From positions 32,001-96,000 of the forward strand of contig JBHLNS010000001.1 of assembly GCA_048941285.1 (NCBI GenBank): a DNA stretch of 64,000 nt. The letters are read 5' to 3'. Below are positions 54,955 to 57,229 of this stretch, piece after piece. A program made the translations under genes and the position numbers. Below the pieces are notes generated by a model. It was not told the origin of the DNA. It worked only from the letters and a program-made list of their open reading frames with translations, and did no database searches. Numbering within the stretch: position 1 is the stretch's first letter; every line of letters starts with the position of its first letter. Source of the DNA: Promethearchaeota archaeon. Lineage in GTDB: Archaea > Asgardarchaeota > Lokiarchaeia > Sigyniarchaeales > SOKP01.

Positions 54955-55494
54955 TTGATTAGATTGACACAATACGATTACACGTTTAAAGTATTAATGT
55001 TAGGAGATGCTTCTGTAGGTAAAACATCTCTTACAATAAGATATATTTCGGGTTTTTTCCAAGAAGACTTGAAATTAACGATCGGAGTGGATTTCTATTC
55101 AAAGACAACTAATTTCAAAGATAAAAAAGTAAAACTGCAAATATGGGATTTTGGAGGGGAAGAACGATTTCGATTTTTACTCTCTCAATATTGTAAAGGT
55201 GCTAATGGTGCTTTTTTTTTGTATGATATTACTAATCAATTATCATTAAATCACCTTCCTGATTGGACACAAGTTATTAGAGAGCATTCAGGAGATATTC
55301 CAATAATGCTAATTGGCTCTAAGGTAGATCTTGATGAATTTAGAGTAGTTCCTAGAGATGACGGCATACTAGCAGCAAAAAAGTATAATCTCGCTTCATT
55401 TGTAGAATTATCATCGAAAACAGGAGCCAATGTTGAAAAAACTTTTAATGTAATGACTGAAATTCTTTTGAAAAAGTTTTCAAACGAGTTTTAA
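54955..55494 (+). CDS. Rab-like small GTPase
   Basis: YDYTFKVLMLGDASVGKTS, TIGVDF, WDFGGE, SKVD, SSKTG. Confidence 0.92.
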   Translation: MIRLTQYDYTFKVLMLGDASVGKTSLTIRYISGFFQEDLKLTIGVDFYSKTTNFKDKKVKLQIWDFGGEERFRFLLSQYCKGANGAFFLYDITNQLSLNHLPDWTQVIREHSGDIPIMLIGSKVDLDEFRVVPRDDGILAAKKYNLASFVELSSKTGANVEKTFNVMTEILLKKFSNEF

Positions 55495-55600
55495 ATCTTA
55501 TTTCTTTATCGCTATTCATATTATTATTTATTAATTAATAGACACATCTTTATAATACATAAGTTCATTAAATAACTATAAATAAATAGAGATAATACAT

Positions 55601-56134
55601 ATGGGAGATCCTAACAAAGAAGAACCTCCAAGACCTAAAGGATTGAATATAAACACCCAGGCACCATTGTTCGATACTATGGATATTTATGAAAATCCTT
55701 TGAATCTAAATGATCTTCTCAAGATTTATGATGGAGTTATGATAGACTTTTTCAGAGGAAATTGGTGAAGTCATTGTAAAAAACACTTAAAACTGCTGAC
55801 TGAAAATATATCTGAGTTTCAAAAAAGAAAAATTAAGTTAATCTCTATTGCCAGTGATAGTGTAAGGCTTTTAAGGAAATTCAAAGAAGAAAATAATTTT
55901 GATGTTGATATGATTTCTGATAGAGGTGCTAAAATAGCAAAACAATATGATGTTTACTGGTTTGCACCTGGTGGAGGAAAAGATTATAAAATAAAACAAG
56001 CAGTTCCCAGTAAATTCTTAATCGATAAAACAAACAAAATTATTTGGAAACATATAGGAAAAGATAAAACAGACAGACCTTCAATTGAAATGATGACCAA
56101 TATAATTGATAAATATATTAAAAATCCCCATTAA
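55601..56134 (+). CDS. Peroxiredoxin-like (AhpC/TSA, thioredoxin fold) selenoprotein, Sec at codon 56
   Basis: ATG 55601; FFRGNW-TGA(55766-55768)-SHC = UxxC; coding continues in frame (LISIASD, MISD, PSKFLIDK) to TAA 56134; SECIS follows. Confidence 0.9.
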
Positions 56135-56189
56135 GAATGATTTAAGTGTTAAAAAGTGAGACACTCAAGGACAACCTTGCGCGGGTTTT
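56122..56189 (+). promoter_or_regulatory. Eukaryote-type SECIS element in the 3' UTR
   Basis: AUGA 56137-40; stem UUUAAGUGUU (56141-50) with GACACUCAAG (56160-69), one mismatch; loop begins AAAAA; GA 56170-71 completes the kink-turn core; imperfect lower stem. Confidence 0.82.
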
Positions 56190-56285
56190 GGGATATTATA
56201 TTTTTTTTAATAAGATTAAAAATTTATAAAACTTCATTTTTGGAGAGTTAATTTATTAAAATTAAATGTTTTTTTAAAAACCATA

Positions 56286-56939
56286 ATGAAAATTTCATGA
56301 TTACAACCAGAAATAATAAGAGGAGATCTGCAGCATAATGTGAAAAAGATTCAAAATTTAATAAATAAAAGTAAAGGAGATTTGTTGGTATTACCAGAAT
56401 ATGTATTAACTGGGTCACTTGTAATGGATAGTAAAGCTAATGTTATAGAGTGGAGTAAAAAATCTGAATACGCAAAAAGTAACCTTAAAGTTCCTAATGG
56501 TAAAATTCTTTTACTGAATTTTTTAAAAAGGATAAATAATAGACTTTATAATATAATTGAGCTATTTCCAACAAGTGATTACCAAATAAAAGTCTACCCT
56601 GATGATATTGAAAAAAAAAATGGAATAAAATCTGGTAAAGAACATAAAATATTTGAATTCTTTAATAAAAAATTTAAAATTTTAATCTGTATGGATTTTA
56701 AATTTATTGATACTATTCCAATTGATAATATTGATTTTTTTATATGGATTTATCATTTTACAGAGGAAAATTATCCAAGAATGCTGAAATTATTAAAGTA
56801 TTATGTTAAAAATAAGAATATACCAATATTAGCAAGTAGCTTAGTAAGTGATAAAAACTGTGGATTTAGTACTTATATTGATAATAAGAAGGTTGTTACT
56901 TTATCTAATTTTGAAGGTATACTTGAAATAGAATTGTAA
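56286..56939 (+). CDS. Carbon-nitrogen hydrolase (nitrilase superfamily) with in-frame TGA at codon 5 (recoded or pseudogene)
   Basis: ATG AAA ATT TCA TGA TTA CAA CCA = MKIS*LQP..GDLQHN; triad E (LPEY), K (KVYP), C (LICMD). Confidence 0.72.
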
Positions 56940-56954
56940 GAATTTTATATTAAG

Positions 56955-57137
56955 CTAATGATTAAATCTTACATATTTAATGTGCTTTTTGATTAAATTA
57001 TTATACCGAAATCCTGTTTCATATTTATTACCACACTTAGAGCAATAATATTGAGTGCAATTTAAACAGTTTTCACGATGTACAATATAGTCACTCATAA
57101 GATCTCCACACTTCTCACATTTTGTGCTTGATGACAT
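56955..57137 (-). CDS. Small Zn-finger protein
   Basis: CEKC, CLNC, CSKC in 60 aa. Confidence 0.6.
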   Translation of the reverse strand: MSSSTKCEKCGDLMSDYIVHRENCLNCTQYYCSKCGNKYETGFRYNNLIKKHIKYVRFNH

Positions 57138-57229
57138 AAGATAAAACTATGATCTAAAATCTATTTAAAATAAATAGGTAAGATGATTTTGTAATAAAAC
57201 AAAAAGTGGTTTTGGTAATTTTTATTTAC

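Follow-up and report, generated by a model that had tools for sequence, protein, structure and literature searches.

Does one SECIS element serve UGA codons in the genes on both of its sides? The question is raised by a locus in the genome of a Promethearchaeota archaeon (GenBank assembly GCA_048941285.1), in which the gene for a small predicted amidohydrolase, located behind a selenoprotein gene and its SECIS, is interrupted by an in-frame TGA at codon 5. The locus lies within a stretch of 64,000 nt of contig JBHLNS010000001.1 (from here: the window), to which the positions below refer unless another contig is named. A preliminary description had suggested that the SECIS might act on both UGAs and that the amidohydrolase might be a selenium-dependent enzyme. 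The analysis reported here leads to a different answer: the TGA at codon 5 is almost certainly an ordinary stop, due to one T-to-G difference at 56299 within the leucine codon TTA, and not a selenocysteine (Sec) codon, and the SECIS is unrelated to this gene.

As a rule, the SECIS elements of archaea, including the Asgard group, sit within the 3′ untranslated region (UTR). An exception is a gene of the Methanococcales, reportedly fdhA. Its SECIS resides in the 5′ UTR, upstream of its UGA (Wilting et al. 1997, cited by PMC4989117). For Methanococcus, the portion of PMC9622424 dealing with this question reports that a SECIS in the 3′ UTR allowed UGAs engineered at three positions to be recoded, with no strict distance limits. 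In the HdrA-VhuD/FrhD gene pairs of Asgard archaea, one shared SECIS downstream of the second gene is the rule, according to the sections of PMC4989117 and PMC11227280 on these pairs. A literature search combining selenoprotein and nitrilase returned incidental mentions only, with neither term in any title or abstract found.

The interrupted gene reads ATG AAA ATT TCA TGA TTA CAA CCA GAA from position 56286 of the forward strand, corresponding to the protein sequence MKIS-TGA-LQPEIIRG. Following the TGA, the frame is open up to the TAA at 56937-56939, and the read-through product consists of 217 residues. In the public annotation of this contig, the gene call (P0003) uses a TTG start at 56385 and comprises 184 aa, lacking the first β-strand of the predicted fold. 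Between the amidohydrolase stop (56939) and the end of the convergent gene (56955) there are only 15 nt. This 60-aa Cys-rich neighbour shares 53-56% identity with its counterparts in the genus genomes G001 and G098 and gave no NCBIfam match. The basic observations of the preliminary description were borne out: reading frame and alignment both confirmed an in-frame TGA in an otherwise intact gene of 217 codons, the tract of Us that it had placed near 56200 corresponds to eight Ts (T8), and the UGA, said to follow the SECIS core by about 125 nt, is found 127 nt past the 3′ GA of the element and 106 nt past its end. The features of the locus are compiled in Table 1.

Table 1. Features of the locus, given as positions in the window
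Feature	Position	Strand	Remarks
Ras-family small GTPase gene	54955..55494	+	Pfam Ras, 158 bits
Peroxiredoxin-like (PrxL, AhpC/TSA) selenoprotein gene	55601..56134	+	Sec TGA at 55766-55768; motif W-U-S-H-C
Asgard/Loki-type SECIS of the PrxL gene	56126..56192	+	29-locus alignment, covariation, model R1
SECIS, AUGA	56137-56140		
SECIS, 3′ GA	56170-56171		
SECIS, main stem	56142-56149 with 56161-56168		
SECIS, apical loop	56150-56160		A-rich, ending AG
SECIS, side hairpin	56173-56178 with 56182-56187		
SECIS, outer helix	56126-56130 with 56188-56192		
T8 tract behind the SECIS	56201..56208	+	likely end of the PrxL transcript
Small nitrilase/CN-hydrolase-superfamily gene ("predicted amidohydrolase")	56286..56939	+	217 codons, TGA at codon 5, otherwise intact
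Codon-5 TGA, G at 56299	56298..56300	+	TTA (Leu) in every other copy examined
Longest table-11 open reading frame past the stop	56340..56939	+	GTG start, 199 aa, without strand β1
Convergent gene, 60-aa Cys-rich product (CxxC...CxxC, zinc-ribbon-like)	56955..57137	-	downstream neighbour conserved in G001 and G098

The genome, which has a GC content of 29.7%, possesses the machinery for Sec decoding, as judged from a tRNA-Sec with the anticodon TCA that ARAGORN detected on contig C52 and from the PrxL gene with its in-frame UGA and SECIS. At the same time, TGA closes 181 of the 1454 open frames of at least 300 codons and is therefore a working stop in this genome. A reassignment of the TGA codon was ruled out by this count together with the TTA read in the relatives. 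An overlap of the locus with a tRNA gene was likewise ruled out, as the tRNA-Sec maps to 88257-88349 of contig C52 and not to C1. The low GC content, the Ras-family GTPase gene and the Loki-type SECIS are together in keeping with an Asgard archaeon.

The gene upstream of the amidohydrolase, together with its SECIS, is an unexceptional selenoprotein unit of a kind already described for Asgard archaea. It matches the PrxL of Asgard archaea and Lokiarchaeota with its 3′-UTR "lokiSECIS" (Mariotti et al. 2016, PMC4989117; 2024, PMC11227280) in the characters given in the relevant parts of these papers, namely the AhpC/TSA fold, a redox motif that contains U, an AUGA almost at the stop codon, a short stem with an apical loop that is rich in A and ends in AG, and a 3′ GA. 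That system describes the neighbouring gene, and the amidohydrolase is no part of it. PrxL matches at E ≤ 1e-30 were obtained in 43 of the 54 genomes of the genus, with an in-frame TGA in every match listed.

Two side observations concern the PrxL genes. A second PrxL paralogue is situated directly downstream of the first in G007 (L026:2233-2775), G021, G074, G097, G073, G008, G078 and others. These second paralogues possess two in-frame TGAs; the one that was translated reads W-U-T-Y-U, so that both redox positions would be Sec (UxxU). The window's genome has only the PrxL copy with one TGA at E ≤ 1e-30. Furthermore, the RNA-library run X20 yielded two contigs of 151 nt that match the PrxL coding region at 55667-55949, Sec UGA included, with 0-1 differences; these may stem from DNA carry-over and hence are no proof of transcription. 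Over the whole locus, X20 contigs matched this segment only, leaving both the intergenic region and the amidohydrolase gene uncovered; as these are contigs and the word share of this run is small, the absence has no bearing on expression or co-transcription of the two genes.

The SECIS is genuine and belongs to the PrxL gene. For its characterization, the 3′ flanks of the best 30 PrxL loci were aligned after omission of one that was cut by a contig end, leaving 29. In this alignment, the AUGA just past the stop codon is invariant, and there is a stem of 8 bp whose apical loop is rich in A and ends in GAG; the 3′ GA, likewise invariant, has a C behind it, and a side hairpin and an outer CCC/GGG helix complete the element. 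Over the 29 loci 88% of the cells were paired, and changes on both sides were observed in 12 of the 19 pairs, a degree of covariation that none of 500 shuffles reached. In the main stem, compensatory changes affected seven of the eight pairs. When the 3′ partner was slid by 1-3 columns, pairing fell to 29-55%. The covariance model built from the element (R1) had one significant match in the window (56123-56203, 84.4 bits) and one match in the PrxL flank of G001. A single-sequence RNA fold of 56125-56215 was of no help (z-score 0.52), and the structure given here derives from the alignment. Rfam searches at gathering and permissive thresholds returned no SECIS family match in the window or in 55500-57200; evidently, the Loki-type SECIS reaches the threshold of no Rfam family. 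Outside the window, R1 had a second, weaker match in the genome at G000:C36:38679-38758 on the forward strand (39.4 bits, E 1.8e-5); this is presumably a SECIS that serves some other selenoprotein gene.

In archaea, oligo-T tracts act as transcription terminators. Behind the SECIS, the T8 tract has counterparts throughout the genus: a run of at least five Ts was present 55-110 nt past the AUGA in 29 of the 29 PrxL loci taken from the best 30. Hence, transcription of PrxL most likely stops at the T8 tract and would not extend into the amidohydrolase gene.

We then considered the interrupted gene itself. Against the Pfam family CN_hydrolase (PF00795), the read-through product scored 16.3 bits, below the gathering cut-off of 23.2 bits, and E ≤ 0.01 was reached by 16 of 59 family members; the amidohydrolase is thus a divergent member of the nitrilase superfamily, assigned at the superfamily level. 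Its AlphaFold2 (AF2) model had a pLDDT of 96.2 and a pTM of 0.92. A Foldseek search of the PDB with this model yielded 213 matches at E ≤ 0.001, of which the top-ranked were all nitrilase-superfamily structures (TMq 0.73-0.81, E about 1e-13), and model and matches agree in the four-layer α-β-β-α fold of this superfamily. The family profile also matched the glutaminase domain of NAD+ synthetase (5kha_A) with an E of 1.9e-5, aligning the Glu (PEY/PEL) and Cys (ICxD) motifs. Examples with a similar fold are 5kha, the N-carbamoylputrescine amidohydrolase 5h8i and the Nesterenkonia amidase 4izu. Compared with typical nitrilase/CN-hydrolase-superfamily members, the amidohydrolase is shorter by about 40 residues. 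Altogether, it is a new yet unremarkable member of the superfamily.

Conservation was evaluated in an alignment of 59 sequences, comprising the window product and 58 of 119 listed homologues chosen across the identity range. In agreement with the preliminary description, which had reported the E-K-C triad as intact, E38, K102 and C135 were invariant and constitute the predicted Glu-Lys-Cys triad; K102 was assigned from its invariance and motif position only, the HMMER alignment missing the template Lys. The window product retained 27 of the 27 invariant columns and departed from none of the 57 columns in which the other 58 sequences agree to 90% or more; among these sequences themselves, the median was 1 departure (range 0-6). 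Neither a frameshift nor the loss of a conserved residue was detected in its translation and in these 57 columns.

If the codon-5 TGA encoded Sec, the position would be expected to show a conserved UGA, or Cys in its place, and neither was found. The homologues comprised the best 120 of 142 matches, that is 119 once the window's own call was excluded, and 112 after seven N-terminally short entries had been dropped. Among these 112 listed homologues with a preserved N-terminus, residue 5 is Leu in 94, Val in 13, Ile in 4 and Met in 1, without a single Cys or any break. Of the earlier characterization of this position as usually small or hydrophobic and sometimes Cys, the mention of Cys is not borne out in this family. 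Residue 5 is placed within strand β1 (E2-7 of the AF2 model), and the predicted catalytic Cys is residue 135 and not residue 5. By the model and the aliphatic residues of the family, position 5 would belong to the hydrophobic core and be neither a redox nor a catalytic site, which is not where a Sec would be placed.

More direct evidence came from the closest relatives and from sequencing runs. All three copies of the same genus that retain codon 5 (L021, L022, L003) read TTA there; these are the intact orthologues in G089 and G098, with 68% and 65% identity, respectively, and a relic in G001. Three DNA runs from three studies were inspected as Logan contigs, in which rare variants are dropped and among which the source run of the assembly is perhaps not represented. 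In all three, T replaced G at 56299, at a depth of 12 of 12 in X1, 7.33 of 7.33 in X2 and 3.1 of 3.1 in X6, and G was found in none of them. The X1 contig of 1404 nt differed from the window over 55913-57140 by an A-to-T difference at 56200, one inserted T and the G-to-T difference at 56299, and by nothing else, while 56299 was the single difference in the X6 contig of 387 nt. A protein called on a Logan contig of 1404 nt (P0123, 217 aa) is identical to the read-through product at 216 of 217 residues and has Leu5. Only this assembly has a G at 56299. Since TTA, one base away from TGA, stands in every other copy examined, the codon-5 TGA is an ordinary nonsense change or a base-call error rather than a Sec site.

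As a separate observation, the T tract at 56200-56208, a homopolymer, also differs in the X1 and X2 contigs (56200 A>T, one or two extra Ts). Here the window again holds the private state, which bears on the occurrence of small local assembly errors.

The arrangement of SECIS and amidohydrolase gene is not kept in the relatives either. In G098, the intact amidohydrolase gene directly follows a Ras-like GTPase gene, with neither PrxL nor SECIS in between. In G089, PrxL is encoded on the same contig but 45 kb away from the intact gene, and in G001 another ORF, GNAT-like as read from its translation, separates PrxL from the relic. Model R1, which represents the PrxL type and may miss other forms, found no SECIS near the intact orthologues (loci L021 and L022). 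The amidohydrolase gene of the window lacks a 3′-UTR SECIS of its own as far as R1, again for the PrxL type only, and Rfam can tell. Among the genomes searched, the adjacency of SECIS and amidohydrolase gene is unique to the window's genome.

These results decide on the proposal that the PrxL SECIS extends its action, via a read-through transcript, to the UGA that follows 106 nt downstream, producing an enzyme with Sec in place of Leu5 (L5U). Several facts had made it attractive. The SECIS lying upstream is genuine, the Sec machinery exists and the amidohydrolase frame is otherwise intact; moreover, there are precedents, namely the Asgard HdrA-VhuD/FrhD genes (PMC4989117 and PMC11227280) for a single SECIS shared by the UGAs of two neighbouring ORFs, and the 5′-UTR SECIS of Wilting et al. 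(1997), as given by PMC4989117, for an upstream location. Yet, both precedents differ from the present case. The HdrA-VhuD SECIS lies downstream of both genes, whereas here it lies upstream, the adjacency exists in the window's genome only and the UGA is private to the assembly. In the Methanococcales, the UGA encodes a conserved catalytic Sec, whereas here a conserved Leu is replaced in one assembly only. Furthermore, PMC11227280, which describes the Asgard selenoproteome, mentions neither "nitrilase" nor "hydrolase" anywhere in the main text. Against the proposal also stand the absence of the TGA from all other copies, the lack of Cys among the listed homologues, the aliphatic β-strand position predicted for residue 5, the intact orthologues without a nearby SECIS and the run of Ts behind the SECIS at every locus aligned. 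We consider it extremely improbable that the two genes share the SECIS in this way. The relatives carry Leu TTA, which the preliminary description had itself named as the observation that would speak against its idea, and the idea is thereby refuted: the locus has no second Sec codon that the SECIS of the PrxL gene would serve. Where that description had asked for the codon-5 residue in orthologues and for conservation of the UGA and of gene order, the outcome was Leu TTA, no UGA and an order that is not kept. Its alternatives fared better, as a simple nonsense mutation agrees with the TTA in the relatives and in the near-identical runs, and an end of the upstream transcript at the U-tract agrees with the T runs of the genus.

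A weaker form of the idea is the accidental rescue of a fresh nonsense mutation. If the G allele were true and some transcripts passed through the T8 tract, the SECIS, then in a 5′ position, might direct the occasional insertion of Sec and give rise to some L5U enzyme. Given a real G and co-transcribed genes, some Sec insertion would be mechanistically possible in light of the Methanococcus experiments as presented in the pertinent part of PMC9622424. Such an accidental rescue has, in our judgement, hardly any chance of being correct. If true, it would provide a natural snapshot of the first capture of a gene by the Sec system through the SECIS of a neighbour.

Alternatively, the stop might be harmless. 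Translation could begin downstream of it, at the GTG at 56340, the TTG at 56385 or a non-canonical start such as the ATA at 56313, and give a working shorter enzyme, or low-level near-cognate read-through of the UGA could supply the complete one. In-frame starts do exist, the 184-aa form is the one called in the public annotation (P0003), the predicted catalytic residues E38, K102 and C135 are encoded downstream of all such starts, and a few database homologues among the matches listed are only 176-194 aa long. However, these short database entries may be cut or miscalled, and the N-terminus is kept in 112 of the 119 listed homologues. Any downstream start would remove strand β1, which spans residues 2-7, together with Q7, P8, I10, R12, G13 and N18, all of them invariant. 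We therefore regard a harmless stop as very unlikely. With an ordinary stop at codon 5, the copy as deposited would yield only a peptide of four residues or an N-terminally truncated protein without strand β1, and truncated products would probably be inactive because this strand and the six invariant residues are lost.

The ordinary stop can have arisen in two ways. It may be a true and very recent nonsense allele of this strain, and would then represent the first step of pseudogenisation, or it may be a consensus or base-call error of the assembly, in which case the organism's gene would be intact with Leu5; the preliminary description had not taken this second origin into account. We consider the two about equally probable. 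Open frames of at least 100 codons cover 86.4% of the genome, which gives no sign of pervasive assembly or frameshift error and weighs somewhat against the second possibility. Conversely, in each of the three differences between the X1 contig and the window, the private state is that of the window, and X2 lacks two of these states as well, so that the two observations point in opposite directions. In neither case is recoding involved.

The dispensability of the gene and its decay in sister species make a true nonsense allele plausible. At E ≤ 1e-12, it was found in 5 of the 135 genomes of the family, the window's own counted, and all five belong to one genus. Besides the window's copy, these are the intact copies in G089 and G098 and the relics in G001 and G002. 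The relic in G001 (L003:1501-1676) retains the first ~58 codons, followed by unrelated sequence, and adjoins the zinc-ribbon gene in the same place as in the window. In G002 (L002:~1630-1764) there is a C-terminal piece only, with the last ~45 codons in frame and four stops. A related-locus search of genome contigs gave no relative of the amidohydrolase, whereas the genome search did recover copies. With only five genomes of 135 carrying it, two of them as relics, the amidohydrolase gene is a patchy, dispensable accessory gene that is undergoing piecemeal loss in the genus.

The locus thereby resembles the incipient pseudogene of an accessory gene inactivated by a nonsense mutation, in that there is a single premature stop, absent from the functional orthologues, and that sister species have relics or no copy. 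It differs from such a case by having no second lesion or other further decay and by an allele that occurs in none of the three runs; the lesion is thus not proven in the organism, and a base-call error explains the data equally well.

For the annotation of this genome, it follows that the gene should be recorded as having 217 codons and encoding an amidohydrolase, with a note of the internal stop or possible sequencing error, and not as the 184-aa product currently listed. Beyond that, the locus constitutes a clean negative, in which an in-frame UGA beside a genuine SECIS mimics a new selenoprotein or a SECIS acting in both directions. Automated searches for selenoproteins in Asgard genomes should therefore demand conservation of the UGA, or of Cys in its place, before such calls are made.
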